DNA from: a virus | Virus genome (UHGV): UHGV-0224961 | Length of the DNA stretch: 39,860 bases | Reading direction: 5' to 3' (one strand) | In this document: one piece after another, positions 193-39,609 of the stretch | Layout of the letters: the number at the start of each line of letters is the position of its first letter | Numbering within the stretch: position 1 is the stretch's first letter | Made by a program: the position numbers and the translations under genes | The notes under the pieces: generated by a model | What the model saw: the letters and a program-made list of their open reading frames with translations, nothing else | What the model was told of the DNA's origin: nothing | The model's database searches: none

Positions 193-1443
193 GTGCTTAC
201 CGATACAAAATTAAAAAACCTCAAGCCACAGGACAAACTGTACAAAGTTTCCGATCGTGACGGGCTGTATGTAGCTGTGCTTACGTCAGGTACGGTCTCG
301 TTTCGCTATGACTACCGTATCAACGGTCGCCGCGAAACACTGGTAATCGGGCAGTATGGGCGTGACGGTATCAGCCTGGCAGAAGCGCGAGAAGAACTGA
401 TTGCTGCAAAGAAGCTGCTTAAAGCAGGCCAGTCGCCGGCTGCGGCTAAACGTGACGGTATCAAAAAGATTCGTGGTGCCGAGACGTTTGCGGTACATAC
501 CGACAGTTATATGAAACACGTCATCCTGGCTGAAAGTACCCGCGCAATGAAGCAGGCGGTGATCGACCGTGACATACTTCCGGTTCTTGGCAACAAAATG
601 ATGGCTGAAATTACCACATCGATGGTTCGTGATTTGTGTGACCGGATTGTCGAACGCGGTGGTCGGGCAACAGCAGTACAGGCCAGGGAGATCATCAGCA
701 GCGTATACCGTCACGCCAATGACCGTGGTCATGGTTTGTTTAATCCTGCTGCTGACATTAAACCTTCGTCTATCGCCATATTTAAACCACGAGAGCGAAC
801 ACTGACACCAGAAGAAATTGGTCTGTTCTTCCGCACGCTGGATGCCATTGGTGCTATGGGCACTATGAAAATGGCTTTAAAGCTGGTGCTTATCACTATG
901 GTTCGTAAAGGCGAATTCACCAATGCAACGTGGGATGAAATAGATTTTAAAAAATGGACATGGACAATTCCTTCAGACCGCATGAAGGGAAGCCGGGCGC
1001 ATGTTATTTACCTGCCTAAACAGGCTCAGGATATATTGGTCGGGTTGCAGATGTGCGCTGGTGGAAGTGAATATCTGGTTCCTGGTCGTTACAATTTCAG
1101 GAAGCCATTATCTAATGCCGCGCTGAACTCTCTGATCGACAGAACGGTGAAAATAATAAATGAAGATGGTGAGCATATTCAGGACTTCACCGTACACGAT
1201 ATGCGCCGTACAGCCAGTACGTTGTTGCATGAGGCTGGTTATCCTTCAGACTGGATTGAAAAGGCTCTGGCACATGAGCAGAAAGGTGTGCGCGCCGTAT
1301 ATAACAAAGCGGAATACGCCAGACAGCGCGCCTACATGTTGCAGCAGTGGTCCGATATGATTGATTCCTGGATTAACGGGGAGCATACGGATCTGATTCC
1401 GTTCTCCCCGTCGAAGTTTGAGAAGTGGATGGCGGGGGAATAA
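193..1443 (+). CDS. int: Tyrosine integrase, P4-type
   Basis: 416 aa; GTG start; N-terminus LTDTKLKNLKP..KLYKVSDRDGLY matches the conserved P4-like integrase arm-binding N-terminal domain; C-terminal catalytic region with HDMRRT and Y. Confidence 0.9.
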   Translation: MLTDTKLKNLKPQDKLYKVSDRDGLYVAVLTSGTVSFRYDYRINGRRETLVIGQYGRDGISLAEAREELIAAKKLLKAGQSPAAAKRDGIKKIRGAETFAVHTDSYMKHVILAESTRAMKQAVIDRDILPVLGNKMMAEITTSMVRDLCDRIVERGGRATAVQAREIISSVYRHANDRGHGLFNPAADIKPSSIAIFKPRERTLTPEEIGLFFRTLDAIGAMGTMKMALKLVLITMVRKGEFTNATWDEIDFKKWTWTIPSDRMKGSRAHVIYLPKQAQDILVGLQMCAGGSEYLVPGRYNFRKPLSNAALNSLIDRTVKIINEDGEHIQDFTVHDMRRTASTLLHEAGYPSDWIEKALAHEQKGVRAVYNKAEYARQRAYMLQQWSDMIDSWINGEHTDLIPFSPSKFEKWMAGE

Positions 1444-1446
1444 CGT

Positions 1447-1641
1447 TTAATAGTTCTGCTGATTTTCTTCCATCTCTGCTTCTGCTGCCAGTGATTCAAT
1501 TTTGTTTTCGAATATTGCTGACAGTGTTGCAAATTCAGCATCAGTGACAGCGGGAATTGGAACAAACCTGATCCCGCTGTGTGCAAGCATGTTTGCAGTT
1601 TCAAGGCATTTCCTTAAATCTGCTGGTGATGCCCTGTTCAT
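1447..1641 (-). CDS. Hypothetical small protein (64 aa), translationally coupled to the upstream methyltransferase
   Basis: In-frame ATG at 1641 forms an ATGA overlap with the methyltransferase stop; last gene of the leftward operon. Confidence 0.4.
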   Translation of the reverse strand: MNRASPADLRKCLETANMLAHSGIRFVPIPAVTDAEFATLSAIFENKIESLAAEAEMEENQQNY

Positions 1642-2288
1642 GCTGCACGCTCCCGCCCCTGGTTGTCTGTTGGTGACAGCGGAGCATTGCTGAATGCATT
1701 TGTTAATCTGGCAATATCCAACGCGTATCCAGGGTGTAGTTGCACTGCCGGGTCTTCGCACTGATTACCCCAAACATCGAAGCCATGAGACGACTGGCGG
1801 GCGAACAGTTCAATGCGAGAAACATCGCCTAACAATTGCACAAGTTTTTCACGAACGACATCTGGTTTTCTTGAATGCTCAAGCCGCGGTGCGGTAAATG
1901 ACTGAACGATCCCTGCATTAATGCGCGTAGGTAGTTTTCCCTTTACCGCAAACAGGCAATCTTCACTATTGGCGCGAGTCATGTGTCCCATACCCATAAC
2001 CAGTTTATCTGGTTGTCGACTACCACATTTTATCCACGTGAAGCCCTTCATGGTCATCAGACGGAATCCCCAGGCTTCAACAACTTTTAGTGCTTCGAGT
2101 GGTTGTGTTGGCACCCACCACATGGCCAACAGACAGTTTTCAGCGGTCAAATCCCACACAGGAAGGCGGCAGATATCCAGCACACTCATAACTGGATATT
2201 TAAAACCGGCACCGCGATTACCATCTGCGGCTTTGTCCCGGTATACCCATGGTGGATCTGCATAGATTAGCGTGTATTTCTTAGTCAT
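1638..2288 (-). CDS. MT-A70-family DNA N6-adenine methyltransferase
   Basis: 216 aa; N-terminal YADPPWVY (DPPW catalytic motif typical of the MT-A70 family). Confidence 0.8.
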   Translation of the reverse strand: MTKKYTLIYADPPWVYRDKAADGNRGAGFKYPVMSVLDICRLPVWDLTAENCLLAMWWVPTQPLEALKVVEAWGFRLMTMKGFTWIKCGSRQPDKLVMGMGHMTRANSEDCLFAVKGKLPTRINAGIVQSFTAPRLEHSRKPDVVREKLVQLLGDVSRIELFARQSSHGFDVWGNQCEDPAVQLHPGYALDIARLTNAFSNAPLSPTDNQGRERAA

Positions 2289-2580
2289 AAACCACCCCGC
2301 AACATCCTATGCCGCTATAGTCGCCACGGCGAAGGCCGTTACCTTTTGTGATACATTGGTCCCTGCGAACCGCGATCCTTGCACGCTCAACATCACCAGA
2401 AGCAACATCCATACACTGAAGCCAAAGGTGGGCGGCAATGCGGAACTGCCCTTTTTTCTCTCTTTCAATCGCGCGTTTTTCGAACTCTATCGCCGCAGGA
2501 GTAACGGCGATAACCTTTGAAGGACGGCGCATTGAAACCTTGTTCATGTGATATTTTTCAAGTCGGCTTAACTTTCTCAC
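2281..2580 (-). CDS. Hypothetical protein (start may be the internal Met near 2547)
   Basis: ORF on the operon strand, ending 2 nt before the methyltransferase start; no recognisable motif. Confidence 0.4.
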   Translation of the reverse strand: MRKLSRLEKYHMNKVSMRRPSKVIAVTPAAIEFEKRAIEREKKGQFRIAAHLWLQCMDVASGDVERARIAVRRDQCITKGNGLRRGDYSGIGCCGVVYD

Positions 2581-2689
2581 TTAATCCAACCCTCTCTGAA
2601 AATTAATGCCAGCAGATAAAGCCATGCTGAAACAGAGGCCAGGAATAAGTACCATCCTGACCATTTGCTCCAGTGCCTTAGCAGCGCAC

Positions 2690-2938
2690 TCATGCAGCGT
2701 TGCTCACAGGACGATATACACGTTGCTGAACAGGAGGCTTTTTACCCTGGAACTCTGCCGGGCTTGCTGCCTGACGTTCATCAAGCCAACGCTCAACTTC
2801 GTCACGGTTCCATGCGCAGCGTTTGTCAGTGATATACCAGCGTTTAGGAAATTCCCCTGCGCGCTCCATACGGTCGATAGTGCTCCATGACAGTGGCACC
2901 ACCGCCAGGAGTTCCTTCTTACCTAATGCACCTTTCAT
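2690..2938 (-). CDS. AlpA-family HTH regulator / excisionase candidate
   Basis: 82 aa; LLAVVPLSWSTIDRMERAGEFPKRWYITDKRCAWNRDEVERWL is the typical AlpA/Xis-like MerR-type HTH signature. Confidence 0.75.
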   Translation of the reverse strand: MKGALGKKELLAVVPLSWSTIDRMERAGEFPKRWYITDKRCAWNRDEVERWLDERQAASPAEFQGKKPPVQQRVYRPVSNAA

Positions 2939-2987
2939 AAATACCTCTCTTGGTTGCAGTGCGGCGCGCGTGGCGCCGCGGTGGTGG

Positions 2988-3869
2988 TTACATAGATGTT
3001 TCGTTTAATTCTTCCCGACGAACGCTGTAAACGTCGGTGGCTTTTGCCAGCAGTTCGTCATCATCTGAAAGTTTTTGTGCAATGTATTTGTAAGCCTTAT
3101 CCAGTTCGGAGACAGTGCTGTAATTCATCGCTGCGCTGGTAAAGGCCATCAGCATTTCTTCTGGATCACGGCTATCCGCTTTACGCGTTTGCTCATCAGG
3201 CTTTTTCACTGGTTTAGCGTTGATCAGACTGTTCATTCCCGCAGCAGTAGTCGTTTGCGGAGTAATGTCTCGCTCAACGCGCGGTGCCGTTTCCTGTAAT
3301 TCGTCAGGGGTGTAAACACCGAGAAGTACATCAGGAGCGTGCAGGCGAGCCCATCGTTTCGTGCAAAGATAGGCAAGCTGCTGGCGCGGATCCTGTTCCC
3401 ACAATGGAGAGTTACGCACTCCGGCTTGCGCCATACTGATGGTAAGCTCACGGGGTTCTGCTTCTCCTTTAAGAACTGCTGACACAGTTACCGTCAGATT
3501 CGGTGATTTATCTGTTTTGCCGTTAACATTCGACCAGTCACCGCTCCAGCGATAATTCAGGCGTGTCGCTAGCAGGCTGGAAGAGGATACGACCGCATTT
3601 ACCAACTGTGCTTCGTAGCCTAACGTTCCGTTTACCACATGCGTTTTCTGCGCCACGGCGAAAGGGTTCATTCCCCACTGTGCCGCCTGCATGGTCACCG
3701 CCAGACAATCGGCAGGTTTGCCTTCAAGATGTTTCGGTACAGTCGCTTTGCTTTGTGACATCAACTCCGCGAAACGCACCAGTTGATTCATGCCCTCCGG
3801 GCTGAAGATTGCCGCAGCAGTACCTACAGTTGCGCCTGGTTGTGATGTGATTGCGATATCATTGCTCAT
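2988..3869 (-). CDS. Single-strand annealing protein (Bet/Redbeta/RecT superfamily)
   Basis: 293 aa; WGMNPF and ERDITP segments resemble lambda Bet as recalled; directly downstream of and overlapping the Exo-like gene. Confidence 0.65.
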   Translation of the reverse strand: MSNDIAITSQPGATVGTAAAIFSPEGMNQLVRFAELMSQSKATVPKHLEGKPADCLAVTMQAAQWGMNPFAVAQKTHVVNGTLGYEAQLVNAVVSSSSLLATRLNYRWSGDWSNVNGKTDKSPNLTVTVSAVLKGEAEPRELTISMAQAGVRNSPLWEQDPRQQLAYLCTKRWARLHAPDVLLGVYTPDELQETAPRVERDITPQTTTAAGMNSLINAKPVKKPDEQTRKADSRDPEEMLMAFTSAAMNYSTVSELDKAYKYIAQKLSDDDELLAKATDVYSVRREELNETSM

Positions 3870-4687
3870 ACGTACATATCCTGTTTACGTGCCCAGTCAG
3901 GGCGTTTAATAATTTCCACTCCGCCCCACTCATCGTTGATGCGGCATTCGTGATAGGTATTCAGATCCCGGCGGAACAGAGCGTGCCCGGCATCGACATC
4001 CGGCGCATCCAGCTCGAACACGCGTACCGGATACCGACCACAATCAATGCTTTCGCTCACGGCAAGAAAGAAAAAACCATGCGGCTGACCAGTAACCCTC
4101 ATTGCGCCTTCGCGGTACATTGCGTCCTGCACGTGGTAGCGGAATTCCTCGATGTGGCGTGCAAAACGGTCCATATCTGCAACCTTTTTCACGTCGACGA
4201 TCACGTTGTGCTCGTTCAGCCATTTGTCTGGACGAATGCGGCACAACTCACCAGTCTCTTCATCATTCCAGTACATTGATGCTTCGCAGTAACCAGGTGC
4301 TTCCAGCATCCAGCGTGCCGCCGGGTGAGCCATTGCGCTATCACGCATAAGCTCCAGTTTCCGCCACTGCTCGGCATCAAGTACCGTAATCCCCATATCC
4401 GCTACATCACGAAGAAATGCTTCTTCGTCAGCTTTACCTTGTTTCGTCCGACGATCGAATTTCGGTGAAACAATGAAGCGTTTGTTGAATTCTCCAGGCT
4501 CCAGAAGCAGACAGTGCAATGCGGTTCCCATATCCAGTGCAGACTTTTTCTCTTCGTCTTCTGGTGCTGCCTGAACCCATTTAAGAAGCGCCGGATTCTT
4601 GGCAACCATGTCCAGTTGCGACTTACTCACGCCGTCACCGGCGTGGTAGTCTTCGTTGCTGATGTCGAAATAAATTCCCGGTTTCAT
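3866..4687 (-). CDS. YqaJ/lambda-Exo-like PD-(D/E)xK exonuclease
   Basis: 273 aa; IRPDKW...DVKK motif; paired with the annealing protein as a Red-like recombination module. Confidence 0.7.
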   Translation of the reverse strand: MKPGIYFDISNEDYHAGDGVSKSQLDMVAKNPALLKWVQAAPEDEEKKSALDMGTALHCLLLEPGEFNKRFIVSPKFDRRTKQGKADEEAFLRDVADMGITVLDAEQWRKLELMRDSAMAHPAARWMLEAPGYCEASMYWNDEETGELCRIRPDKWLNEHNVIVDVKKVADMDRFARHIEEFRYHVQDAMYREGAMRVTGQPHGFFFLAVSESIDCGRYPVRVFELDAPDVDAGHALFRRDLNTYHECRINDEWGGVEIIKRPDWARKQDMYV

Positions 4688-4983
4688 GCCGCGTCCCTCT
4701 GTCCATCAAGCTGATCCGCCAGATCCCAGCGGGCGATAATTGCCATTGCCTCTCGCCGATAGGCATCCATCAGTTCTTCGAACTCAGGGCTGTCTTTAGC
4801 AGCCTCCAGTACTTCCTGACGAACGCCTTTACCTGTTACAACGTCGAAAGTTGAGGACAGTTGATGAAGTCGGATGCTCTCAATCAGTTCAACTTGTCGG
4901 TCATATAGCTGTTCTGACAGGCGGTAGTCCTTGTCGAATGCCAGCATGATTTTTTGAAGATTTTTCTGCTGATTAACGTTCAT
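4684..4983 (-). CDS. Hypothetical early protein
   Basis: Start at ATG 4983 with GGGAGGG RBS 7 nt upstream; ATGA overlap with the exonuclease gene. Confidence 0.55.
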   Translation of the reverse strand: MNVNQQKNLQKIMLAFDKDYRLSEQLYDRQVELIESIRLHQLSSTFDVVTGKGVRQEVLEAAKDSPEFEELMDAYRREAMAIIARWDLADQLDGQRDAA

Positions 4984-4985
4984 TA

Positions 4986-5138
4986 TCAGCCCTCCCATAT
5001 CTCGTTATCGTTGGCCACATCGCGAGCTTCTTTGCTGACGAAAGCCCACTTGATGCCTTCCTGTAAGGTGCGGAACTTCCAGCTCATGAATCCGCATGCA
5101 GTAACGCAGTACCAACCGTTGATGATTTTCCACTGCAT
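4986..5138 (-). CDS. Small hypothetical protein (50 aa), first gene of the leftward early operon
   Basis: Hand-translated MQWKIINGWYCVTACGFMSWKFRTLQEGIKWAFVSKEARDVANDNEIWEG; GAGG RBS; stop overlaps the next start (TGATAATG); below the ORF-track size cutoff. Confidence 0.35.
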   Translation of the reverse strand: MQWKIINGWYCVTACGFMSWKFRTLQEGIKWAFVSKEARDVANDNEIWEG

Positions 5139-5144
5139 AACTTG

Positions 5145-5234
5145 TTACCTCGGTCTGTTACCGTTGAGGTAATGATTATGCGTATTTGGTTTGGTGTCAA
5201 TAGATATGAGTTAAAAAAATTACCCGTTAGGTAA
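5145..5234. promoter_or_regulatory. OL-like operator cluster: two perfect TTACC-N5-GGTAA palindromes (5158-5172, 5220-5234) plus a TTACC half-site
   Basis: Palindromes lie between the repressor terminator and the first leftward early gene. Confidence 0.6.
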
Positions 5235-5245
5235 TCAAATAAGCA

Positions 5246-5269
5246 ATAAAAAAGCCGCCAGAAGGCGGC
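5246..5269 (-). terminator. Rho-independent terminator of the repressor transcript
   Basis: gccgcc-agaa-ggcggc stem-loop with an A-run on the plus strand (U-run on minus) immediately 3' of the repressor stop. Confidence 0.65.
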
Positions 5270-5291
5270 TTACTTACTGAAAAATATGTTT

Positions 5292-5876
5292 TTATTGTTT
5301 GTTTTTTTCGTTCTGGTTGATGACAAATTCAATGTAACTTTCGATCTTTGCCTTCTCTGTTTCAGGTAACAATGCGTAGCGCGAGCGGTCATAGTTGATA
5401 GTCGCGGGGTCGTGCGGGTGAATCAGTAATTCATATCCGTGACGCCCAAATGCGGATGCAACATTCTCCAGGGTGGAAATGGAAACGCTGACCTCATTGT
5501 TTAACAGGCGGCTGATTGTTACCTGGGCGACGCCGGATGCGCGGTGAAGTTTTCCCTGCGTTGAAAGGTCGCGGCTTTCGCTCATCCAGCGTTCCAGGTT
5601 GTGAGCCGCCAGTTGACCAATGTCGCTTGGTCCGACAGGCTGAAAACCTTCCTGAGAAAGCGAGCGATCGATATCAAGCCAGTTACGGGGTTTATTGGCG
5701 GCAGCTTCAATTTTTCGCGCAACCTGGTCGCCGATAACCTTCTTGCCAAGAGCCCAGCGGTTTACCAGATTTGCCTGAGTTCCAAGTTTTTCAGCCATCC
5801 GCGTCTGAACACCATTGAATTCACGGTCGATCAAGTCGTTGAGATTTTGCCTGCGGACGTCCTGGATACTTTTCAT
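5292..5876 (-). CDS. CI-like repressor with two HTH-like regions and no S24 peptidase domain
   Basis: 194 aa; N-terminal XRE-type HTH (TRMAEKLGTQANLVNRWALGKK); second HTH-like segment (ASGVAQVTISRLLNNE); no G-S-M / Lys autocleavage motifs seen; flanked by operator clusters. Confidence 0.75.
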   Translation of the reverse strand: MKSIQDVRRQNLNDLIDREFNGVQTRMAEKLGTQANLVNRWALGKKVIGDQVARKIEAAANKPRNWLDIDRSLSQEGFQPVGPSDIGQLAAHNLERWMSESRDLSTQGKLHRASGVAQVTISRLLNNEVSVSISTLENVASAFGRHGYELLIHPHDPATINYDRSRYALLPETEKAKIESYIEFVINQNEKNKQ

Positions 5877-5931
5877 TTTCTGGAAAATCGCCTCATATCT
5901 GAATCAGAAGATGATTCAATTTAAAGCAATA

Positions 5932-5994
5932 TTACCCAACAGGTAAATGCACCTCATGGGTAACTATCCTTGATTTTTGTTACCTTATAGGTGA
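5932..5994. promoter_or_regulatory. OR-like operator cluster: TTACC-CAACA-GGTAA (5932-5946), GCACC-TCATG-GGTAA (5949-5963), TTACC-TTATA-GGTGA (5980-5994)
   Basis: One perfect and two imperfect palindromes in the 154-bp divergent region between the repressor and the cro-like gene. Confidence 0.65.
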
Positions 5995-6030
5995 ATATTT
6001 ATTATCTGAAATAAATATCAGGCAATAGCT

Positions 6031-6261
6031 ATGAGCGATAACGGACATTTCGATTTCAAAAAGCACTGGCTTGCACTTACTCCGGATGAGCGTGAAGCCT
6101 TCGCACAGGAAGCCGGAACGACGAGTCACTATATCCAGACTCACTTAACAGGTAAGCGCAAAATGCCAGGTAAGGTATTGATGAATGGGCTTTTTAAAGC
6201 CTGTAAATCAAGACAATGGCTGCGCTCAAAAGCAGAACTGGCATACTTCTTCTACTCATGA
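6031..6261 (+). CDS. Cro-like HTH protein
   Basis: 76 aa; divergent from the repressor; HTH-like segment LTPDEREAFAQEAGTTSHYIQTHLTGKRK. Confidence 0.65.
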   Translation: MSDNGHFDFKKHWLALTPDEREAFAQEAGTTSHYIQTHLTGKRKMPGKVLMNGLFKACKSRQWLRSKAELAYFFYS

Positions 6262-6411
6262 TATCCAGCCACAACCCTCTGTAGACCGCCATCCGGCGGT
6301 CTTTTCATATCTATTCGCACCTTGAGGGTAATAAAAAACCAAATGTGGTTGATCTTTTTTTTGTGTCAGCACAAAATGACCGTAATCCCAATACAAATAA
6401 CAGGGCTTACC

Positions 6412-6612
6412 ATGGAAATCATTACACGTATTGATGCCGCAAAGCGCGGACTTAAACGCTACTACACCGGAAAACCATGTAAGCACGGACATGACAGTGA
6501 ACGCTGGGTTTACAACGGACACTGTGTTGAGTGCACCATGGAATCAAACCGTCGTATCAGGGCAGAGATTAAGCAGATCATGATTAATTCCTCCCCACAA
6601 CATTCAAGCTGA
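6412..6612 (+). CDS. Small Cys/His-rich putative zinc-binding protein
   Basis: 66 aa from ATG 6412 (the track ORF extends to 6322); CKHGH...HCVEC cluster. Confidence 0.45.
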   Translation: MEIITRIDAAKRGLKRYYTGKPCKHGHDSERWVYNGHCVECTMESNRRIRAEIKQIMINSSPQHSS

Positions 6613-6627
6613 TAGCGGAGATTAATC

Positions 6628-7419
6628 ATGAGCAGACATGCAACAGATTGGGCCTGGGAGACAGATCCAGGTAGCTCGTCATTAAAGCTCATACTGCTCT
6701 CGATGGCTGACAGAGCAGATGAATATAACCTCTGCTACCCCAGCATAGAACGCCTCGTTAAAGACACTTGCCTGAATAAAAAAACCGTGCAGGCCGGGCT
6801 TATATCGCTCATGAAAATGGGGCTTATTTCAGATACCGGAGAGAGAAAGGGAGCGACAAAAAGAGTGCGGGTTTTCTCTCTTAATATAACCAAAAACGGG
6901 AACATTAAAGGCAACCGGGAGGGGGGCAATGAACCCGAAAACGGTAATGTTACCGAAAACGGGAATATACCCAAAAACGGGATGTTGAATGATCCCAAAA
7001 ACGGGATCCAGAACCAGTCATATAACCAGTCATTTAACCAAGAGAGGGAGAGCAGGACAAAAAACGGGGATTCTGTGCATCATGACCCCAACGCAAACAA
7101 CGCCGTGATGAATAACTTTGTTCCTCCTGGTGGGCCAGGGCAATTAGGCAAATTTGTCATGCATGAACAATGGCAGCCATCAGATGACTTTCTTCGGAAA
7201 AGCTCATTGCAGGGGATCTACCTGGACAGTCTGCCAACGGCACAGGAACTTGCAGAGTTCAGAATTTACTGGATGGCTGAGGGTAAGGCATACCATCAGG
7301 CACAGTGGGAGCAGAAGCTGGCAAGGCGGCTGCAGATTAGCAGACAGAAGCAATCAACATTACCTGATAACAACGTTCCGCACTGGAACAGCCCTGAAGC
7401 ATGGGAGGATTTCTTGTGA
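6628..7419 (+). CDS. Replication initiator (lambda O-like role; N-terminal winged-HTH-like domain)
   Basis: 263 aa; iterons embedded in the central coding region; immediately upstream of the P-like gene. Confidence 0.7.
   Translation: MSRHATDWAWETDPGSSSLKLILLSMADRADEYNLCYPSIERLVKDTCLNKKTVQAGLISLMKMGLISDTGERKGATKRVRVFSLNITKNGNIKGNREGGNEPENGNVTENGNIPKNGMLNDPKNGIQNQSYNQSFNQERESRTKNGDSVHHDPNANNAVMNNFVPPGGPGQLGKFVMHEQWQPSDDFLRKSSLQGIYLDSLPTAQELAEFRIYWMAEGKAYHQAQWEQKLARRLQISRQKQSTLPDNNVPHWNSPEAWEDFL
6889..7070. repeat. Origin-like iteron array inside the initiator gene
   Basis: Six or more copies of CC(C/G)AAAACGG(G/T)A at 6890, 6934, 6953, 6970, 6994 and 7057, followed by a direct repeat aaccagtcat x2 (7012-7033). 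Confidence 0.6.
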
Positions 7420-8201
7420 ACAACGTTTTTACCGCGATACAAAACCGTGACGGAGAAGCCCTTTCTCGCATGTCAGGTTATGAGCATCAGTACGTCAACA
7501 ATGACAATGTGGTGAACATGTCAGCAGAGAGGCTTGTTGATGCTCTTTTCAAACAGCTGAAACAGCTGTTTCCGGCGGCAGTGGTAACCAACCTGAAGAC
7601 GCCAGAGCAGGAAGTTGCTGCAAAACAGCAGTGGATTGCTGCGTTTGCCGAAGGTGGGATCCGAACCCGTGAACAGGTTTCTGCTGGTATGCGCCACGCC
7701 CGCGCCAGTGAATCTCCGTTCTGGCCGTCGCCAGGGCAATTTATCAAGTGGTGCAAAGACAGCAAGATGGTTCTTGGCGTCACCATTGACGATGTGATGG
7801 CGGAGTTTCACCGGTACAGCAAGGAAAAAAGTTTATATCCTGGTGGTCCCGAAAGATTCCCGTGGCGACATCCGGTTATGTACTGGGTCGTATGTGATAC
7901 CCGCCGTGCAATGTATCAGCGCCAGCTTAGCGAGATTGAGGTTGAGAAACACGCGCGCAGGCTGCTCGATGATTGGGCGAAAAAGGTGGCTTCCGGACAG
8001 CAGATACCCGATCCGGTGATCAGCATACAGGCAAAGCCAGAACCCATGAGTACGCCTCCGGACACAGGGAGAGACGTTTACCATCCACCAGGGCGAAGTT
8101 TCGGGTGTATGCCTAACGCCGCCACCCTGGGGGGAATAACACCGGCGCAGTGGCTGATGGAGGAATACAGGCGGGGAAAGGCGGCAGGATTTATCAAGTA
8201 A
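7416..8201 (+). CDS. Replication protein P-like (DnaB helicase loader)
   Basis: SPGQFIKWCKD and FPWRHPVMYWVV match lambda P segments as recalled; GTG 7416 with GGAGGA RBS, overlapping the initiator stop. Confidence 0.8.
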   Translation: MNNVFTAIQNRDGEALSRMSGYEHQYVNNDNVVNMSAERLVDALFKQLKQLFPAAVVTNLKTPEQEVAAKQQWIAAFAEGGIRTREQVSAGMRHARASESPFWPSPGQFIKWCKDSKMVLGVTIDDVMAEFHRYSKEKSLYPGGPERFPWRHPVMYWVVCDTRRAMYQRQLSEIEVEKHARRLLDDWAKKVASGQQIPDPVISIQAKPEPMSTPPDTGRDVYHPPGRSFGCMPNAATLGGITPAQWLMEEYRRGKAAGFIK

Positions 8202-8206
8202 TACCA

Positions 8207-8226
8207 GCGCGATAGCGCATTTTTTT
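8207..8226 (+). terminator. Weak terminator-like hairpin with T-run after the P-like gene
   Basis: gcgc-gata-gcgc followed by tttttt; stem only 4 bp. Confidence 0.3.
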
Positions 8227-8238
8227 ACGCCCACATGA

Positions 8239-8315
8239 TTACCTGATGGGTAATAAAATATTCTAGTATCTATTGATTTCATGTCTTATGTGGTTTTTAA
8301 TTACCTAAGGGGTAA
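8239..8315. promoter_or_regulatory. Two perfect TTACC-N5-GGTAA palindromes (8239-8253, 8301-8315) bracketing a TATCTA-N14-TATGTGGTT promoter-like motif
   Basis: Second palindrome ends 3 nt before the ATG at 8319. Confidence 0.55.
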
Positions 8316-8318
8316 ATC

Positions 8319-8663
8319 ATGAGAAAACAGATACAGGCTCTTGGTCGGCTCAAAACAGGCCAGATGAACAAAACAGAATCTGCGTATTGCCAGCACCTTG
8401 AGCTGCGTAAACGTGCAGGGGAAATCGCATGGTATCGATTCGAGGGTATCAAGCTGCGGTTAGCTGACAACACGTTCTATACGCCAGATTTCGCTGTGAT
8501 GCTCGCCACCGGAGAGATGGAACTGCACGAAGTGAAAGGTTTCTGGACCGACGACGCCAGGGTGAAAACCAAAGTCGCCGCAGATCAGTATCCGTTCCGA
8601 ATCATCGGGGTAACGGTTAAACCAAAGAAAGCAGGTGGTGGCTGGAACATCGAAGAGTTCTGA
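8319..8663 (+). CDS. Small PD-(D/E)xK-like nuclease (VRR-NUC/DUF1064-like)
   Basis: 114 aa; PDF...ELHEVKG arrangement consistent with a D-E-K nuclease core. Confidence 0.5.
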   Translation: MRKQIQALGRLKTGQMNKTESAYCQHLELRKRAGEIAWYRFEGIKLRLADNTFYTPDFAVMLATGEMELHEVKGFWTDDARVKTKVAADQYPFRIIGVTVKPKKAGGGWNIEEF

Positions 8664-8724
8664 ATCGACGATCTTTTTAGTTATCAATGTAATCAATAAG
8701 TTATGTGGATAAGCGAGGGTAAAG

Positions 8725-9153
8725 ATGGAAAGTAATATCAAAGGGTTAGTTGCCGCCGGGCATGAGATGGCTTCGGAACTGAAAGCAGAATGTGGTGCCG
8801 TTGATATGCGCAGTGTGGCAAAGCTGATCAGCGATTTGGCAACGCAACTGGAAGTGCAACTGGTGCGTGCTAATGCGCTGGCGGCGGAGAATGCAAAGCT
8901 GAAGAAGTTCTGCAAAGACGCTGCATTCGATGCCGATTACGAAGCAGAGCTAGGTATGGAGCGTGGTGGATTCAGTGATGCGCTTAACGAAATCAAAACC
9001 CCAGCCACCGATGCTTTTCTGGCTGAAGTACGGGCGCAGGGCGTGGAGATGGCTATGGAACATATGCAGTCGAGCGGTTCGTTAACATTTGGAGATTGCT
9101 ACATATCACTTAACGAGTTCGCCGCAGAGCTTCGCAAAGGAGGCAGCCAGTGA
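8725..9153 (+). CDS. Ea22-like family protein (paralog 1)
   Basis: C-terminal ATDAFLAEVRAQGV...FAAELRKGGSQ shared with the ORF at 10263. Confidence 0.55.
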   Translation: MESNIKGLVAAGHEMASELKAECGAVDMRSVAKLISDLATQLEVQLVRANALAAENAKLKKFCKDAAFDADYEAELGMERGGFSDALNEIKTPATDAFLAEVRAQGVEMAMEHMQSSGSLTFGDCYISLNEFAAELRKGGSQ

Positions 9154-9638
9154 CTGGAAATGCAGCAATCCTCGACATGTGCTGTGGCAGTCGCATGTTC
9201 TGGTTCGATAAGAATGACGACCGGGCGATATTTAGCGATATCAGAAAGGAAGAGCACACATTATGTGATGGACGACGCCTGATTATCAGTCCTGACCTGA
9301 TAGCTGATTTTCGTGCACTACCATTTGCAGACGCATCCTTTTCGATGGTTGTATTCGACCCTCCGCATCTTGAGCGTGTTGGTGATAACGCCTGGATGGG
9401 AAAGAAATATGGACGGCTGAATAAAGATACCTGGCGTGATGATTTGCGGCAGGGGTTTAAAGAAGCCTTTCGGGTGTTGTGGCCACACGGCGTTCTGATT
9501 TTTAAATGGAATGAAACGCAAATACCTGTTCGCCAGATATTGGCACTGACCGACAGAAAGCCTGTTATCGGTCAACGAACAGGAAAGGGTGACAAGACCC
9601 ACTGGATTATTTTTATGAAGGAGGCATCCAGTGAGTAA
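9150..9638 (+). CDS. Putative DNA amino-methyltransferase (DPPH motif)
   Basis: 162 aa; LDMCCGS (motif I-like) and VVFDPPH (motif IV-like); GTG start 6 nt after AAAGGAGG. Confidence 0.55.
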   Translation: MTGNAAILDMCCGSRMFWFDKNDDRAIFSDIRKEEHTLCDGRRLIISPDLIADFRALPFADASFSMVVFDPPHLERVGDNAWMGKKYGRLNKDTWRDDLRQGFKEAFRVLWPHGVLIFKWNETQIPVRQILALTDRKPVIGQRTGKGDKTHWIIFMKEASSE

Positions 9639-10275
9639 CCGTTTTTACATGATGTGCTTGCGTGAAACTGTGGGTAATAACGCCTCATTCCATTGCCATA
9701 ACGGCAATGGTTACAGTTCTGATATCGATCGCGCTCATGTTTACACGCTAGAAGAAGCCCAAAAAGCCTGGAATTGTGGGCGAGATATCGATCAGCCTGT
9801 TTGTGCCGATAGTGTGGATGCAATTGCTGTGTGGCACGTTGATTGCCAGTACATCCCTACAGAAAGCCTGATTGAGTCAGATTGCACTGCGTATGTGGCC
9901 TACAAAAAAGGTAGCTGGAACGGCAACGATGTTTACTGGCTTCAACACGGTGGATTGCCAACAGATGATTTCAGTAAAGCGACCATCTTTAGCGTCGCCA
10001 ACAAAAACGAACCAGGAATAGTTTGGTTGCCATTTCCCATTGCTGATGCAGCAAAGCGCCGGACGTTCAATATCAATAACTTTAACCGCAGAACAATGGT
10101 TCAGGGCGCAGGTTTGGTCATGCCTGACTGGTTGAAAGAGCAGAACAGAAGAAAGAAGTCGCGAAGCGGGAAGGTGCGTTGGAATTGTCCGCATTGCGGA
10201 AAAATCACCTGGCAGTACAGCCCATATGATTTTGAAGGCTGTAGTGATTACAACTGTGAAGGATGGCGAGAATGA
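9631..10275 (+). CDS. Hypothetical protein with C-terminal zinc-ribbon (CPHCG...C..C)
   Basis: 214 aa; overlapping gene starts typical of phage operons. Confidence 0.5.
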   Translation: MSNRFYMMCLRETVGNNASFHCHNGNGYSSDIDRAHVYTLEEAQKAWNCGRDIDQPVCADSVDAIAVWHVDCQYIPTESLIESDCTAYVAYKKGSWNGNDVYWLQHGGLPTDDFSKATIFSVANKNEPGIVWLPFPIADAAKRRTFNINNFNRRTMVQGAGLVMPDWLKEQNRRKKSRSGKVRWNCPHCGKITWQYSPYDFEGCSDYNCEGWRE

Positions 10276-10955
10276 CAATTGACTATCAGGTACTGCGCGA
10301 GGCGGCGGAACAGGCAACGCAAGATGAATGGGTAGCATATATTTTGCCGGGGCAAAACGGCACTTATCCTGCGCATACGTCTGAGGGTAGGCATTGCGGA
10401 TACTTTATTGACTGGCCTGGCATTGATGGACAGAGAAACGCTGGTGCCAATGCCCGTTATATCGCGGCTATCCCACCCAAAGTTGTGCTGGCTCTACTGG
10501 ATGAAATTAAGCGCCTGGAGGACACAAATATTGATGCTATGTGTCGAATTGCAGAGCTTGAGACTAATCTCGCGGCGCTGGTGGCGGAGAATGTGGGGCT
10601 AAAGGCGATATGTGATGACCGTCGCAGGTTCATCATGAATGGGGTGCAGATGGGTTATATCAAGGTGCCAGCAGCGGAAACAGATCCAGACCTTGAGACA
10701 ATTCGCATTGCTATATCACCACAAAAGCCCATTCCAGCCACTGATGCTTTCCTGTCTGAAGTGTGGGCGCAGGGGGTGGATGCTGCTATAGAAGCTGCAA
10801 AAAATCTGGTGGTCCAAGAATATGAGTATAAGGATTTCAAAGCGGCGCAGAGTGATTGCTGTATGCACCCTGGTTCAGACCTGGTAGGGAAGGTTGAAAT
10901 GACTGAGTGGTTAGTTGACTTTGCTGCCCAGCTTCGCAAAGGAGGCAACCAGTGA
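10263..10955 (+). CDS. Ea22-like family protein (paralog 2, mosaic)
   Basis: N-terminus IDYQVLREAAEQA resembles the ORF at 10952; C-terminus resembles the ORF at 8725. Confidence 0.55.
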   Translation: MARMTIDYQVLREAAEQATQDEWVAYILPGQNGTYPAHTSEGRHCGYFIDWPGIDGQRNAGANARYIAAIPPKVVLALLDEIKRLEDTNIDAMCRIAELETNLAALVAENVGLKAICDDRRRFIMNGVQMGYIKVPAAETDPDLETIRIAISPQKPIPATDAFLSEVWAQGVDAAIEAAKNLVVQEYEYKDFKAAQSDCCMHPGSDLVGKVEMTEWLVDFAAQLRKGGNQ

Positions 10956-13295: not shown

Positions 13296-13889
13296 ATGCC
13301 TGCTGAACCTAAAACCTATAAACGCAAATCAACGCAATTTAAGCCACTAACAGCAATGCAGGAGGCTTATTGCCAGTCATACATCAAAACGCCTGAAAAC
13401 CAGACTCAGGCAGCGATTAACGCAGGATTCTCCCCAAATACAGCGGCAGTTAAAGCCAGTGTCATGATGCGCGATGAACGCATTCAAAAACGGATTGCCG
13501 AGTTGATGGAGGAGCGCAACAAACGAATGCGCGTCAGTGCTGATTACGTTCTCATGCGCCTGGTGGAGATCGACCAGATGGACGTGATAGACATCCTCAA
13601 CGACGATGGGAGCCTTAAACCAATCCGCGAGTGGCCGAAAATCTGGCGCACTACGCTTAGCGGCTTTGATCTGTCATCGACCATCATGAACATGAACGAG
13701 GATTCGATAGAGACAATCCTCAAAAAAATTAAATGGCCTGACAAGGTGAAGAACCTTGAGCTGATTGGTAAGCACGTCGATGTCAATGCATTCAAAGAAC
13801 GCCTGGATGTTAATGTGAATGTGACAATTGCTGATCGCATAGCGGCAGCCAGGAAGAGACTGAAAGAACGTCAGGATGGCAATCAGTGA
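13296..13889 (+). CDS. Terminase small subunit
   Basis: Directly upstream of and overlapping TerL; start taken at ATG 13293/13296 (the track ORF begins at a TTG at 13215 that runs through the operator and terminator). Confidence 0.65.
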   Translation: MPAEPKTYKRKSTQFKPLTAMQEAYCQSYIKTPENQTQAAINAGFSPNTAAVKASVMMRDERIQKRIAELMEERNKRMRVSADYVLMRLVEIDQMDVIDILNDDGSLKPIREWPKIWRTTLSGFDLSSTIMNMNEDSIETILKKIKWPDKVKNLELIGKHVDVNAFKERLDVNVNVTIADRIAAARKRLKERQDGNQ

Positions 13890-15361
13890 CAGATGCAGCG
13901 TTATCTCCTGAAGAGCAGTTGATCGAGGATATTGCAGGGTTCACTCACGATCCGCTTGGCTATGCCCTCTATGCGTTCCCGTGGGGGGAAGAGGGGACTG
14001 AATTAGCACATGCCACCGGTCCACGTCAGTGGCAGGCTGATGCGTTCAGAGAGATACGTGATCACCTGCAGAATCCAGAGACGCGATATCAGCCGCTTAT
14101 GCTGGCACGTGCTTCTGGTCACGGTATTGGTAAATCCGCATTCATCTCAATGCTGATCAACTGGGGCATGTCCACTTGCGAGGATTGTAAGGTCGTGGTG
14201 ACCGCCAACACCGACAACCAGCTACGAACGAAGACCTGGCCGGAAATTATCAAGTGGTCGAACCTTGCTATCACGAAAGACTGGTTTACCTGTACCGCTA
14301 CCGCGATGTACAGCAATGACCCTGGGCACGACAAGCGGTGGCGAGCTGACGCAATCCCTTGGTCTGAGCACAACACTGAGGCATTCGCCGGACTACACAA
14401 CGAGCGCAAACGCATCATCGTGGTATTCGATGAGGCGTCGAACATTGCGGATCTGGTGTGGGAAGTTGCCGAGGGTGCGCTAACGGACGAAGACACTGAG
14501 ATTATCTGGGTGGCGTTCGGAAACCCGACGCGTAATACCGGACGTTTCCGCGAATGTTTCCGCAAATATAAACACCGCTGGAAAACTGCGCAGATTGACA
14601 GCCGGACGGTGGAAGGCACTAACAAACAGCAGTTGCAGAAATGGGTTGATGACTACGGGGAAGACAGCGACTTCGTTAAAATCCGTGTGCGCGGCATATT
14701 CCCGGATGCATCTGAATTGCAGTTTATCCCTACCGGACTTACTGACGAGGCAATGAAACGGGTGGTCACCGCTGCGCAGGTGGCACATGCTCCGGTGATA
14801 ATCGGCGTTGACCCGGCATACTCCGGCGTTGATGACGCTGTGATATACCTGCGGCAGGGGCTGCACAGTAAGGTGCTGTGGACTGGCAACAAGACCACTG
14901 ACGATCTGATTATGGCGAAGCGTATCGCTGACTTTGAAGACCAGTACCAGGCTGACGCGGTGTTCATCGACTTCGGTTACGGTACCGGGCTGAAGTCAAT
15001 CGGTGACGGTTGGGGGCGTACATGGCAACTTGTTCCGTTCGGTGGCGCGTCTACTGACCCGCAGATGCTAAACAAGCGCGGGGAGATGTTCAACAGCTGC
15101 AAAACGTGGCTGAAGCTGGGCGGGATGCTGGATGACCAGGAAACAGCGGACGACCTGTCGGCGGCAGAGTACAAAGTTCGCGTGGACGGTAAAATCGTTA
15201 TCGAACCGAAGGAAGATATCAAGGAGCGGCTTGGGCGTTCGCCGGGTAAAGGCGATGCGCTACTGCTGACGTTTGCTTTCCCTGTGTCTAAGCGCCTGCG
15301 AATTCCCGGGCAGCAGAACCAGCAAGGTAAGGCCATCACAGATTACGATCCCTATGCTTAA
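13886..15361 (+). CDS. Terminase large subunit
   Basis: 491 aa; Walker A-like ARASGHGIGKS; C-terminal nuclease-like domain with acidic residues; GTG start overlapping the terS stop. Confidence 0.9.
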   Translation: MTDAALSPEEQLIEDIAGFTHDPLGYALYAFPWGEEGTELAHATGPRQWQADAFREIRDHLQNPETRYQPLMLARASGHGIGKSAFISMLINWGMSTCEDCKVVVTANTDNQLRTKTWPEIIKWSNLAITKDWFTCTATAMYSNDPGHDKRWRADAIPWSEHNTEAFAGLHNERKRIIVVFDEASNIADLVWEVAEGALTDEDTEIIWVAFGNPTRNTGRFRECFRKYKHRWKTAQIDSRTVEGTNKQQLQKWVDDYGEDSDFVKIRVRGIFPDASELQFIPTGLTDEAMKRVVTAAQVAHAPVIIGVDPAYSGVDDAVIYLRQGLHSKVLWTGNKTTDDLIMAKRIADFEDQYQADAVFIDFGYGTGLKSIGDGWGRTWQLVPFGGASTDPQMLNKRGEMFNSCKTWLKLGGMLDDQETADDLSAAEYKVRVDGKIVIEPKEDIKERLGRSPGKGDALLLTFAFPVSKRLRIPGQQNQQGKAITDYDPYA

Positions 15362-15677: not shown

Positions 15678-15754
15678 TGGCGTGGCATGCAGGATTCGAA
15701 CCTGCGACCAACCGCTTAGAAGGCGGTTGCTCTGTCCAACTGAGCTAATGCCAC
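15678..15754 (-). tRNA. tRNA-Arg (anticodon UCU), phage-encoded
   Basis: Reverse complement folds as a canonical 77-nt cloverleaf: acceptor GTGGCAT/ATGCCAC, D-stem GCTC/GAGC, anticodon stem ACCGC/GCGGT, loop CTTCTAA, T-stem GCAGG/CCTGC, TTCGAAT loop, discriminator G, CCA encoded. Confidence 0.85.
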
Positions 15755-38535: not shown

Positions 38536-39075
38536 TTAGTTAAACCAGCTGTCCGATTTGTTCTCTTCTGCTTTGCCCACGCTTTTCATCAGATCGCGAC
38601 CGCCTTCAGTCATATTCCTGTTTGCGTCAGCTTCAGATTGCACCACATCGGTTTGCGCAGCTTTGTGCTTCAGTTCCTGATCGATAAATTCGTTTTCTCG
38701 CTTAACGCGGGCTTCTTCTTTCGCCAGCGCCAGTTTTTGTTTCTGAATCTCTAAGCTGCGTAGCTCATCTTCATAACTTTGATCGCGTTTCTTGTCCGCA
38801 GTGGCTTCGGCGTCCAGTTTATCCTGACGAGCTTTCTTATTCGCCGCTGCCGTTGCCGCTCTTTTATTAGCCGCGGCCTGGGCGTTTGCGCGACGTTGCT
38901 TCTCTTGCTGGATTTCCCTGTTGCGCTCCGCGACCCATTCGTCATGCTGCCTTTGCTCTTCATTTTTACCTTGCTGTTCCGCTTCTGCGACAGCAGAGAG
39001 TTGATCCTGCAATGATGAGGCGATAGCCGGATAGCTTAAGGAGGCTAAGATGGCGCAAAGAAAAACTTTCTTCAT
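38536..39075 (-). CDS. Secreted charged coiled-coil protein (probable host or cargo gene)
   Basis: Signal peptide MKKVFLCAILASLSYPAIA; Lys/Glu/Ala/Gln-rich. Confidence 0.6.
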   Translation of the reverse strand: MKKVFLCAILASLSYPAIASSLQDQLSAVAEAEQQGKNEEQRQHDEWVAERNREIQQEKQRRANAQAAANKRAATAAANKKARQDKLDAEATADKKRDQSYEDELRSLEIQKQKLALAKEEARVKRENEFIDQELKHKAAQTDVVQSEADANRNMTEGGRDLMKSVGKAEENKSDSWFN

Positions 39076-39090
39076 GACTCCTCCTGATTA

Positions 39091-39609
39091 TTAGCTCTTT
39101 TCAGGACATTTGGTATTTGGCTGAATACGCGTTTCGTTATACGTCGTGGTAATAACAACGGCTAAACCTGTCGTAAACTGGCACTCTTTACCCACCTGGG
39201 TGGAGGTATACACTTTGGTGCCTTCCTTATACGTTAGAGAAACACCTTCCACTAAGGTTTTATCATTCACCATAGAACCTGCTGCCGCGCCAACAGCTCC
39301 GCCGCCAACTGCACCTGCCGTCGTTCCGGAATTGCTGCCAGACCCCACGTTGTGGCCGATAACACCGCCAGCGACTGCACCAATAAGCGCGCCGAAGGCT
39401 TGTGCGTTTCGTTTATTTTGGGAGTTGTCTACGGCAACTTTTGCGGGAAGAATGGAAATAATATTAACGGTTTTAGTTTCTTGTTTGGTATTCAGTTGAT
39501 CGGTTTGATAAACATCGGCGGCATGATCATCAGCATTTGACTGGCATCCTGCCAGAGTGAATGACGCTAACATTGCCACAGGCAGAAGACATTTTTTAAA
39601 TTTCATCAC
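39091..39609 (-). CDS. Lipoprotein with glycine-zipper motif (YcfJ-like)
   Basis: Lipobox FTLAGC; GALIGAVAGGVIGHNVGSG glycine zipper. Confidence 0.7.
   Translation of the reverse strand: MMKFKKCLLPVAMLASFTLAGCQSNADDHAADVYQTDQLNTKQETKTVNIISILPAKVAVDNSQNKRNAQAFGALIGAVAGGVIGHNVGSGSNSGTTAGAVGGGAVGAAAGSMVNDKTLVEGVSLTYKEGTKVYTSTQVGKECQFTTGLAVVITTTYNETRIQPNTKCPEKS

Follow-up and report, generated by a model that had tools for sequence, protein, structure and literature searches.

The window analysed here (a 39,860-nucleotide stretch of virus genome UHGV-0224961) is, judged by its sequence, an essentially complete genome of a phiV10-like (Uetakevirus) temperate phage of E. coli, sharing ~97% nucleotide identity with phiV10, phiv142-3 and others. 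It contains two intact SAM-dependent methyltransferase genes of different families, ORF A and ORF B, both at the positions where the first-pass annotation had placed them (Table 1). These are ordinary genes with prior annotation: among 5426 complete E. coli genomes the ORF A gene is present in 538 (10%) and the ORF B gene in 945 (17%), and phiV10 itself carries ORF A and lacks ORF B. The GC contents of both are close to that of the window, their profile matches are far beyond chance, and their products are putative exocyclic amino group methyltransferases belonging to two unrelated families.

Table 1. Coordinates of the two methyltransferase genes, their motifs and flanking features in the window.
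Feature	Coordinates	Strand	Remarks
DUF1382 gene	1447–1641	-	PF07131, E 7e-30; overlaps ORF A stop by 4 nt
ORF A	1638–2288	-	Predicted MT-A70 (beta-class, permuted) SAM-dependent adenine-N6 methyltransferase, 216 aa; equivalent of PhiV10p33
ORF A C-terminal tail	1638–1727	-	aa 188–216; BLASTP alignment with the Stx-phage enzyme ends at aa 187
ORF A ELFAR block	1797–1811	-	aa 160–164; C-terminal conserved block; aligns to EIFAR of MTA1
ORF A DPPW	2247–2258	-	aa 11–14; catalytic motif IV; aligns to DPPW of MTA1
PerC-like gene	2281–2547	-	PerC-family small protein, 88 aa from ATG at 2547; PF06069, E 5.6e-7; PHROG 868, 5e-61
Promoter-like site	5172–5200	-	TTGACA-17-AATCAT, 10/12 matches (consensus match only); head of the leftward string ending with ORF A
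Ead/Ea22-like gene	8725–9153	+	PHROG 492; ribosome-binding site of ORF B within its last codons; stop overlaps the GTG start of ORF B
39-nt direct repeat, left copy	9115–9153	+	Family D3; 85% identity
ORF B	9150–9638	+	Predicted minimal stand-alone class I SAM-dependent amino-methyltransferase, 162 aa, without target-recognition domain
ORF B motif I, DMCCGS	9174–9191	+	aa 9–14; presumed SAM-binding loop; aligns to motif I of PH0226 / 1ve3
ORF B motif IV, DPPH	9357–9368	+	aa 70–73; invariant in 56 homologues (alignment A1)
Downstream gene	9631–10275	+	PHROG 2457; cysteine-rich C-terminus; overlaps ORF B end by 8 nt; not a conserved partner
39-nt direct repeat, right copy	10917–10955	+	Family D3

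ORF A (ATG at 2288, stop at 1638) matches the MT-A70 profile PF05063 over positions 1–172 of 172 (E 4.6e-22; 79.2 bits against a cut-off of 23.9), and is also matched by PHROG 359 (9e-120) and by a REBASE-derived Type II methyltransferase model (1.1e-78). The ELFAR block, in which E160 and F162 are invariant (alignment A2), is taken to be the equivalent of the SAM-binding motif I of MT-A70 enzymes; it follows motif IV and the motif order is thus permuted, as in the beta class. The predicted structure resembles METTL3 and MTA1, although METTL3-METTL14 and the ciliate MTA1-MTA9 are obligate heterodimers with extra domains whose substrates are mRNA or ApT sites in DNA, whereas ORF A is a bare 216-aa domain. 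Its C-terminal tail is modelled at low confidence (pLDDT 44–62), and the same tail is present in phage Tyrion.

ORF A lies at the far end of a leftward early gene string in the order PerC-like gene, methyltransferase, DUF1382 gene, integrase, and is translationally coupled to the genes on both sides of it. The PerC-like frame is open further up to a GTG at 2580, and its stop codon overlaps the start of ORF A (ATGACTAA). Among 80 related IMG/VR loci a PerC-like gene is situated upstream of the methyltransferase gene in 77 and a DUF1382 gene is present in 58. The orthologous gene of phiV10 (PhiV10p33; ~97% nucleotide identity) and its equivalents in Tyrion, SPN1S and epsilon15-like phages occupy the same position and operon; nothing substantial sets ORF A apart from PhiV10p33, the annotation of which rests on similarity only, but in Tyrion and SPN1S the genes immediately upstream differ from that in the window. 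Other ORF A homologues follow NinB or an HTH_ParB gene, or have no called gene immediately upstream, and those at 66–84% identity stand alone in nin or replication modules.

Over aa 1–187 ORF A is 83% identical (E 3e-124) to M.EcoPA8orf6770P (= M.ECPA8_3172P) of the Stx2a phage PA8, with which it shares an MT-A70 domain with DPPW, a location near the integrase end and a coupled small gene upstream. The PA8 methyltransferase gene is also followed by a DUF1382 gene, whose product matches that of the window at E 1e-27. The differences are that PA8 is an Stx phage and the window a Uetakevirus podovirus, that the last ~29 residues of the two enzymes are unrelated, and that the position of the PerC-like gene is filled in PA8 by the gene for PNB-2, a 143-aa winged-helix protein. 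Bound to PNB-2, M.EcoPA8orf6770P prefers 16S rRNA and 30S subunits (Gong, Chakraborty and Koudelka, NAR 2024, PMC10810198), and the rRNA targeting is described for this holoenzyme only (PMC10810198).

This likeness to an enzyme with an upstream-encoded partner (PMC10810198; bioRxiv 10.1101/2023.09.20.558713) suggests an alternative in which ORF A would be the catalytic subunit of a two-subunit RNA methyltransferase with the PerC-like protein as its targeting subunit, modifying host rRNA or other RNA so as to tune translation or prophage induction and giving no protection to DNA. Such an arrangement would agree with the frequency of heteromers among MT-A70 enzymes (PMC7544214), with the PerC-like overlap at the ORF A start in 77 of the 80 loci with this allele, and with two independent natural in-frame PerC::MT-A70 fusions (P0244 and P0245). 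In each of the six phages compared (the window, PA8, Tyrion, SPN1S, a Klebsiella phage and Stean) the methyltransferase start is moreover overlapped by a gene, but overlapping genes are normal in phage operons. The PerC-like protein is unlike PNB-2, with no similarity in a direct alignment, and tblastn searches of the whole window with PNB-2 and PNB-1 yield only matches with E > 1. The C-terminal ~27 residues that the authors tie to the presence of PNB-2, and propose to bind it, are missing from ORF A and replaced by its own tail. Nor do tails track partners, as Tyrion has the tail found in the window but a different gene immediately upstream, a Klebsiella PNB-2 homologue goes with a different methyltransferase tail, and the close homologues of ORF A have no common neighbour. 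The published rRNA assignment is based on a SAM-consumption assay, and the preprint's rationale of shielding ribosomes against Shiga toxin does not apply to a phiV10-like phage. A two-subunit RNA methyltransferase is an unlikely reading of ORF A.

The data on DNA as a substrate come from the same group of enzymes. The purified Stx-phage homologue has near-background activity on DNA, including DNA with unmethylated GATC (PMC10810198), and when overproduced it reportedly methylates DNA at GATC. For M.EcoGV of E. coli O104:H4 C227-11, PMC10810198 and Table 3 of PMC6602927, which cite Fang et al. 2012, give a GATC specificity; like ORF A this enzyme is orphan and prophage-borne, and PMC10810198 calls it highly similar to the PA8 enzyme. 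The O104:H4 Stx2 phage phiON-2011 codes for a protein 82% identical to ORF A. By its family ORF A would be expected to make N6-methyladenine. Since there is no PNB-2 and homologues occur alone in nin and replication modules, it would most likely methylate DNA, either at GATC, the site reported for M.EcoGV, or at another site of similar shortness. In E. coli GATC is already methylated by the host Dam, so activity at this site would add little protection there.

ORF B begins with a GTG codon at 9150 that overlaps the stop of the preceding gene and has an AAGGAGG Shine-Dalgarno sequence just upstream. The motif order is linear, with motif I preceding motif IV. Among 56 homologues motif I is invariant at D9, C11 and C12 and almost invariant at G13 and S14; of the acidic residues of motifs II and III, D53 is invariant and D30 almost so. 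The model has a seven-stranded Rossmann-like methyltransferase fold in which the catalytic core takes up all 162 residues, with no room for a target-recognition domain; N-terminal extensions in homologues are heterogeneous. ORF B falls below the Pfam gathering thresholds of Methyltransf_11 (20.3 bits against 21.2) and Methyltransf_25 (18 against 27), assignments that its Firmicutes homologues carry, and is matched by PHROG 954 'DNA methyltransferase' (1.3e-88) and PADLOC MTase_II (4.6e-74), both labels being names given by similarity.

Comparisons with characterised enzymes point in several directions. There is no significant match of ORF B to a curated DNA methylase family (PF01555, PF02384, PF05869 and similar); the motif IV region has sub-threshold similarity to the DNA methylase TTHA0409 and to PF01555, and two distant homologues match PF01555 around this motif at E values of only about 0.002–0.003. 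In the structure comparisons small-molecule, RNA and uncharacterised methyltransferases, and not DNA methyltransferases, match best; M.TaqI, M.BceJIV, TTHA0409 and an N4C DNA methyltransferase occur elsewhere in the list of fold matches. RNA enzymes of the Trm11, TrmN, RsmC and RsmD type, likewise found as structural matches, share with ORF B the I-to-IV order, a (D/N)PPx motif and a compact Rossmann core, but have extra RNA-binding domains (THUMP, N-terminal extensions) or partners such as Trm112, and no significant sequence similarity to ORF B.

The ORF B cassette is bracketed by the pair of 39-nt direct repeats, which lie at the 3′ ends of two Ead/Ea22-like genes; repeat families D1 and D2 have the same spacing as D3. 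E. coli records label the ORF B flanks ead/Ea22-like, and the best E. coli match stops at the ORF B stop codon. The neighbours at 70 loci fall into 69 clusters, so ORF B has no fixed partner there, and no nuclease. Members of the family are present in phages of several phyla at 46–63% identity; in Streptococcus phage Javan85 the homologue likewise has the replication genes on one side and the terminase genes on the other, and the GC content of the Streptococcus homologue is close to that of its own phage. ORF B shares 96% identity with proteins that are widespread in E. coli prophages and is a typical member of the PHROG 954 / PADLOC PDLC03288 and PDLC03730 family, with nothing to set it apart. 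The NCBI name for this family is 'class I SAM-dependent methyltransferase' and not DNA methyltransferase, and a literature search found no published characterisation or experimental substrate for it.

Because ORF B has neither a recognition domain nor a conserved neighbour, it would most likely work by itself or as a homo-oligomer and methylate an amino group of nucleic acid, with low sequence specificity, during phage DNA replication. A possible functional analogue for a methyltransferase without a recognition domain is M.EcoGII (PMC5778455), a non-specific phage adenine methyltransferase that is orphan and prophage-borne and for which broad protection has been proposed, although it is a DPPY enzyme of the beta class, 349 aa long, with a recognition region of normal size, is unrelated in sequence to ORF B and is not of the MT-A70 family. 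It is also conceivable, if somewhat less so, that ORF B is not a DNA methyltransferase and instead modifies a host molecule that is conserved universally, such as a base of rRNA or tRNA (giving e.g. m2G or m6A) or a side chain of a protein, so as to adjust host translation or evade an RNA-targeting defence. The 46–63% identity across phyla would also fit a target of this kind, and none of the characterised DNA methyltransferases is known to be so small (162 aa). Fold matches inside the Rossmann methyltransferase superfamily are, however, a poor indicator of substrate and here include DNA enzymes, in phages that differ widely the gene is surrounded by genes for DNA replication and recombination, and the PHROG and REBASE-derived PADLOC models name the family DNA methyltransferase, if by similarity only.

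Several elements of the first-pass annotation are borne out by these data. ORF A is an MT-A70-type protein with DPPW at the end of a leftward string, and ORF B a compact DPPH-motif protein in the rightward accessory region. Their assignment to separate operons is reasonable, since they are on opposite strands in opposed gene strings, each with its own promoter-like site (that of the rightward string at 5977–6005). That they are unrelated agrees with the beta4-DPPx strand being the sole detectable sequence similarity between the two families. The proposal that they have different folds does not stand, because both share the Rossmann methyltransferase fold and differ in family and motif order. 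Their description as orphans is upheld: the neighbours of the two genes encode PerC-like, DUF1382, Ead/Ea22-like and PHROG 2457 proteins, and no restriction endonuclease is present among the neighbour genes examined. The suggestion that two methyltransferases block two restriction systems is a guess, and the interpretation as a whole is only partly supported.

Whether one or both genes might be decaying, inactive prophage passengers and their pairing functionally meaningless can also be considered, as lysogens often do not express their prophage methyltransferases (PMC5778455, PMC4659465) and databases hold truncated and fused variants of these enzymes. However, both frames are full-length with catalytic and SAM motifs intact, both have good ribosome-binding contexts, and both are common in E. 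coli and under purifying selection (dN/dS of 0.18 for ORF A and 0.08 for ORF B). The Pfam shortfall of ORF B concerns generic models, the family-specific ones matching at 1e-74 to 1e-88. Decay is very improbable. The preferred reading, to which we give about an even chance, is of two orphan methyltransferases, ORF A acting most likely on DNA and ORF B on a nucleic-acid amino group; protection from restriction would be a plausible consequence of both predicted activities.

The small proteins encoded upstream of the methyltransferase differ between phages, with PNB-2 in Stx and Klebsiella phages, the PerC-like protein in the window and a small winged-helix protein in Tyrion. A more speculative and quite improbable proposal is that the MT-A70 core is a catalytic module with swapped small upstream proteins, of which the PerC-like one would give ORF A a new target in RNA or DNA, while ORF B would be a domain-minimal methylase of a universally conserved host RNA. 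If this were true, it would link the PerC/Pch-type virulence regulator family to nucleic-acid methylation, and the phage would reprogram its host with two methyltransferases, neither of them mainly for restriction evasion.

The 39.9-kb window is essentially the genome of a single phiV10-like (genus Uetakevirus) temperate phage of E. coli, since phiV10 and many of its relatives (phiv142-3, PAS61, TL-2011b, and others) share ~97% nucleotide identity with its first 12 kb, and the phiV10 annotation corresponds gene for gene (integrase, DUF1382, methyltransferase, PerC-like activator, AlpA-like regulator, RecE/RecT, repressor, replication genes, and DUF1064). Two opposed gene strings are each headed by a promoter-like site (Table). 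Separate ORFs with a 4-nt overlap encode a RecE-like protein of 273 aa and a RecT protein of 293 aa, whereas the phiV10 record has a single fused recET gene of 1761 nt at this place. In a region otherwise transcribed rightwards, a leftward tRNA-Arg gene (anticodon TCT) separates the large terminase ORF from the large ORF that follows it, which probably encodes the portal. The lysis cassette is followed by two leftwards-transcribed genes that look like lysogenic-conversion or exclusion morons; one encodes a DUF5384 protein (E = 4e-62) and the other a protein with a glycine-zipper domain and a weakly matching TraT-like region. Between positions 32000 and 37000 the GC content falls to 0.39–0.45 around the ORF for a 991-aa tail spike with weak similarity to the catalytic domain of an endosialidase and to the Peptidase_S74 chaperone domain; this suggests that the tail-spike region is an exchanged host-range module relative to the remaining phage.

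Table. Locations of the methyltransferase genes, associated features, and upstream genes overlapping MT-A70 methyltransferase starts in other phages.
Feature	Genome	Coordinates	Strand	Remarks
ORF A, MT-A70 family methyltransferase	Window	2288–1638	minus	216 aa
RecE-like and RecT ORFs	Window	2988–4687	minus
Promoter-like site	Window	5200–5172	minus
Promoter-like site	Window	5977–6005	plus
Direct repeats	Window	8875–9153 and 10575–10955		Three families of 45, 60, and 39 nt; 71–85% identity; spacing ~1.7–1.8 kb
ORF B, DPPH methyltransferase	Window	9150–9638	plus	162 aa
Large terminase ORF	Window	13886–15361
tRNA-Arg gene	Window	15678–15754	minus
Large ORF, probably portal	Window	16403–18082
Tail-spike ORF	Window	33138–36113
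Two genes after lysis cassette	Window	38536–39609	minus
Overlapping upstream gene	Phage PA8			PNB-2
Overlapping upstream gene	Klebsiella phage ST13-OXA48phi12.5 (locus L086)	1073–3299 (region)		Homologue of PNB-2, 53% identical to that of PA8
Overlapping upstream gene	Phage Tyrion			75-aa winged-helix protein
Overlapping upstream gene	Phage Stean			Hypothetical protein
Overlapping upstream gene	Salmonella phage SPN1S (locus L085)	509–1504		331-aa protein with FDGQHR motif

The genome contains the two orphan methyltransferase genes described in the first-pass annotation, ORF A and ORF B, and these belong, as proposed there, to unrelated families and separate operons; they differ in motif order and lie in the opposed gene strings, each with its own promoter-like site. 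A SAM-binding fold is predicted for both products. The further description of the two enzymes as having different folds is incorrect, because both share the same Rossmann-type fold and differ in family and motif order; profile-profile comparison finds only a 14-column beta4-DPPx strand in common. Phage phiV10 itself lacks ORF B, both genes occur together in at least one other phiV10-like IMG/VR contig (loci L044 and L092), and their combination in one phage is an outcome of mosaic gene exchange.

The ORF A match covers the Pfam MT-A70 profile from end to end (E = 4.6e-22), and ORF A also matches PHROG 359 (9e-120). DPPW (aa 11–14) precedes ELFAR (aa 160–164), which reads as the permuted motif order typical of beta-class enzymes. 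Among 59 distinct IMG/VR alleles dN/dS is 0.18, in a sample (also used for synteny) whose members are all at least 97% identical, with no wider diversity in the set. The GC content of the gene is close to that of the window, and of 5426 complete E. coli genomes 538 carry it at ≥95% nucleotide identity, under the annotation 'MT-A70 family methyltransferase'. M.EcoGIX is plasmid-borne and specific for single-stranded DNA and thus unrelated to ORF A, and M.EcoGII and M.EcoGI are 349-aa DPPY beta-class enzymes rather than MT-A70 proteins.

An MT-A70/DPPW homologue from the Stx2a phage PA8, M.EcoPA8orf6770P, was studied by Gong, Chakraborty and Koudelka (PMC10810198). Without a partner it has near-background activity on RNA and DNA, including DNA from dam- strains; PNB-2, which is encoded by the co-transcribed gene upstream, joins it in a 1:1 complex that prefers 16S rRNA and 30S subunits. 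Its gene increases virulence and the spontaneous induction of the prophage, and the DPPW-to-APPA mutant does neither (PMC10810198). Expression of this gene in the prophage state is also reported. A follow-up preprint (10.1101/2023.09.20.558713) proposes that the rRNA methylation shields ribosomes against Shiga toxin. Over aa 1–187 ORF A and the PA8 enzyme share 83% identity, but the last 29 residues of ORF A are unrelated. Both phages have a downstream DUF1382 gene; upstream, PA8 has PNB-2 and the window has a PerC family member (PF06069, PHROG 868). The PerC-like protein has no similarity to PNB-2, and there are no PNB-1 or PNB-2 homologues anywhere in the window. Non-Stx (phiV10-like) phages thus also carry the catalytic core of the 16S rRNA methyltransferase reported from Stx phages, with another upstream gene and another tail. 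In the Klebsiella phage, the MT-A70 gene preceded by the PNB-2 homologue encodes a protein only 46% identical to the PA8 enzyme, and a C5-cytosine methyltransferase gene comes next; the pairing of PNB-2 with MT-A70 thus extends beyond Stx phages, at odds with the published statement.

It is possible that the activity of ORF A is directed by the PerC-like protein. Of 80 IMG/VR loci with this ORF A allele, 77 have the PerC-like gene overlapping the start of ORF A. Among relatives of window 1638–2580, public assemblies also contain two distinct PerC::MT-A70 fusions, natural and in frame: P0244 (297 aa, three member sequences) and P0245 (263 aa, two members); these could be indel accidents or a hint that both proteins cooperate. 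More generally, the methyltransferase start is overlapped by an upstream gene in the window and in five other phages, although the gene varies (Table); the SPN1S product resembles DndB/DGQHR-domain proteins. However, the tail type is independent of the partner type, which argues against a required partner: Tyrion combines the tail seen in the window with a winged-helix gene directly upstream, and a different tail accompanies the PNB-2 homologue of the Klebsiella phage, so co-variation of tail and partner was rejected. Homologues of ORF A at 66–84% identity likewise sit after NinB (in a P22-like nin region) or after an HTH_ParB gene, and another has ~680 nt upstream without a called gene. Our conclusion is that the MT-A70 core forms a mobile and largely self-sufficient module, with the PNB-2 partnership as a specialisation.

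For ORF A in this phage, adenine methylation of DNA (GATC-like) is somewhat more likely than RNA methylation. REBASE-based tables list GATC for M.EcoGV, the relative in E. coli O104:H4 C227-11 (PMC6602927), for which the data of Fang et al. are taken as cited in PMC10810198. GATC is present 149 times in the window against 197 expected (ratio 0.76), a depletion that is uninformative because several other palindromes are similarly or more strongly depleted.

ORF B begins with a GTG codon located seven bases past AAGGAGG and overlapping the stop codon of the preceding gene, and its product contains DMCCGS (motif I, aa 9–14) and DPPH (motif IV, aa 70–73). It scores below threshold with generic Pfam methyltransferase models and is matched by the family-specific PHROG 954 (1.3e-88), PADLOC MTase_II (4.6e-74), and oMTase (5.7e-50) profiles. 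The gene is present in 945 of 5426 complete E. coli genomes (17%), annotated as 'class I SAM-dependent methyltransferase'; word-index searches gave about 8000 scored relatives each, and an exhaustive profile search returned 2855 family representatives at 50% identity, 1373 of them with E ≤ 1e-10. The family spans phages of Gram-positive and Gram-negative hosts, with homologues at 46–63% identity in phages of Streptococcus, Listeria, Staphylococcus, Lactobacillus, Gordonia, Corynebacterium, Acinetobacter, Vibrio, Bacteroides, and Porphyromonas. Homologues have a dN/dS of 0.08, and an alignment of 56 sequences has 34 invariant residues, among them D9, C11, C12, D53, DPPH, Y87-G88, and an RVL..G.L.FKW block. 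The GC content of ORF B is similar to that of the window, and that of the Streptococcus homologue is similar to its own phage.

Direct repeats of 82–85% identity lie on either side of a segment made up of ORF B and the next gene (PHROG 2457); they correspond to the ends of two paralogous Ead/Ea22-like genes, both of which end ...LRKGG(S/N)Q followed by GTGA. ORF B is flanked by ead/Ea22-like genes in other E. coli prophages too, and its homologue in Streptococcus phage Javan85 lies between the replication and terminase genes. ORF B behaves as an exchangeable cassette, and the repeats may be recombination points for its gain and loss. Across 70 proteobacterial phage loci its immediate neighbours fall into 69 clusters, with no conserved partner or nuclease.

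The DPPH motif indicates that ORF B would methylate an exocyclic amino group. Its module context favours a nucleic acid substrate, probably DNA with little sequence specificity. The catalytic core fills all 162 residues, leaving no space for a recognition domain. If active on DNA, it would be smaller than any characterised DNA methyltransferase known to us. A serious alternative, kept in play by the strong cross-phylum conservation, the absent recognition domain, and structural matches to RNA enzymes, is that ORF B acts on a conserved host RNA. When ORF B, singly or as a profile, was compared with the sequences of solved structures, only weak generic matches came up. The N- and C-terminal extensions of some homologues (Ead-like coiled coils, DUF6291, a membrane segment, low-complexity sequence) were considered as clues to the substrate and rejected; they are heterogeneous and mutually unrelated, and have the look of read-through products or wrongly called starts. 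Pneumophage SpSL1 cds16, reported to show 'no adenine methylation', was also rejected as an ORF B homologue: it is a DPPY protein of the beta class with no relationship to ORF A or ORF B. Literature searches found no experimental work or substrate report for the DPPH family, and no Pfam-based survey of phage methyltransferases.

Of the interpretation in the first-pass annotation, two orphan, unrelated enzymes in separate operons therefore stand, and protection against more than one restriction specificity is not supported by evidence: the candidate GATC specificity duplicates that of host Dam, the best-studied ORF A homologue is reported as an rRNA methyltransferase regulating prophage induction, and ORF B has no recognisable means to read DNA sequence. 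Two or more orphan methyltransferases are frequent in temperate phages, and ORF A and ORF B are ordinary representatives of known families, already annotated in hundreds of E. coli genomes, so that the presence of two in one phage, as originally claimed, is of little weight. The modest interest lies in two side results: the minimal DPPH family, whose substrate is the question it raises, is very widespread, and the catalytic core of an rRNA methyltransferase described as Stx-phage-specific occurs in non-Stx phages with other upstream genes, which bears on whether ORF A acts on DNA or RNA and on what determines this.
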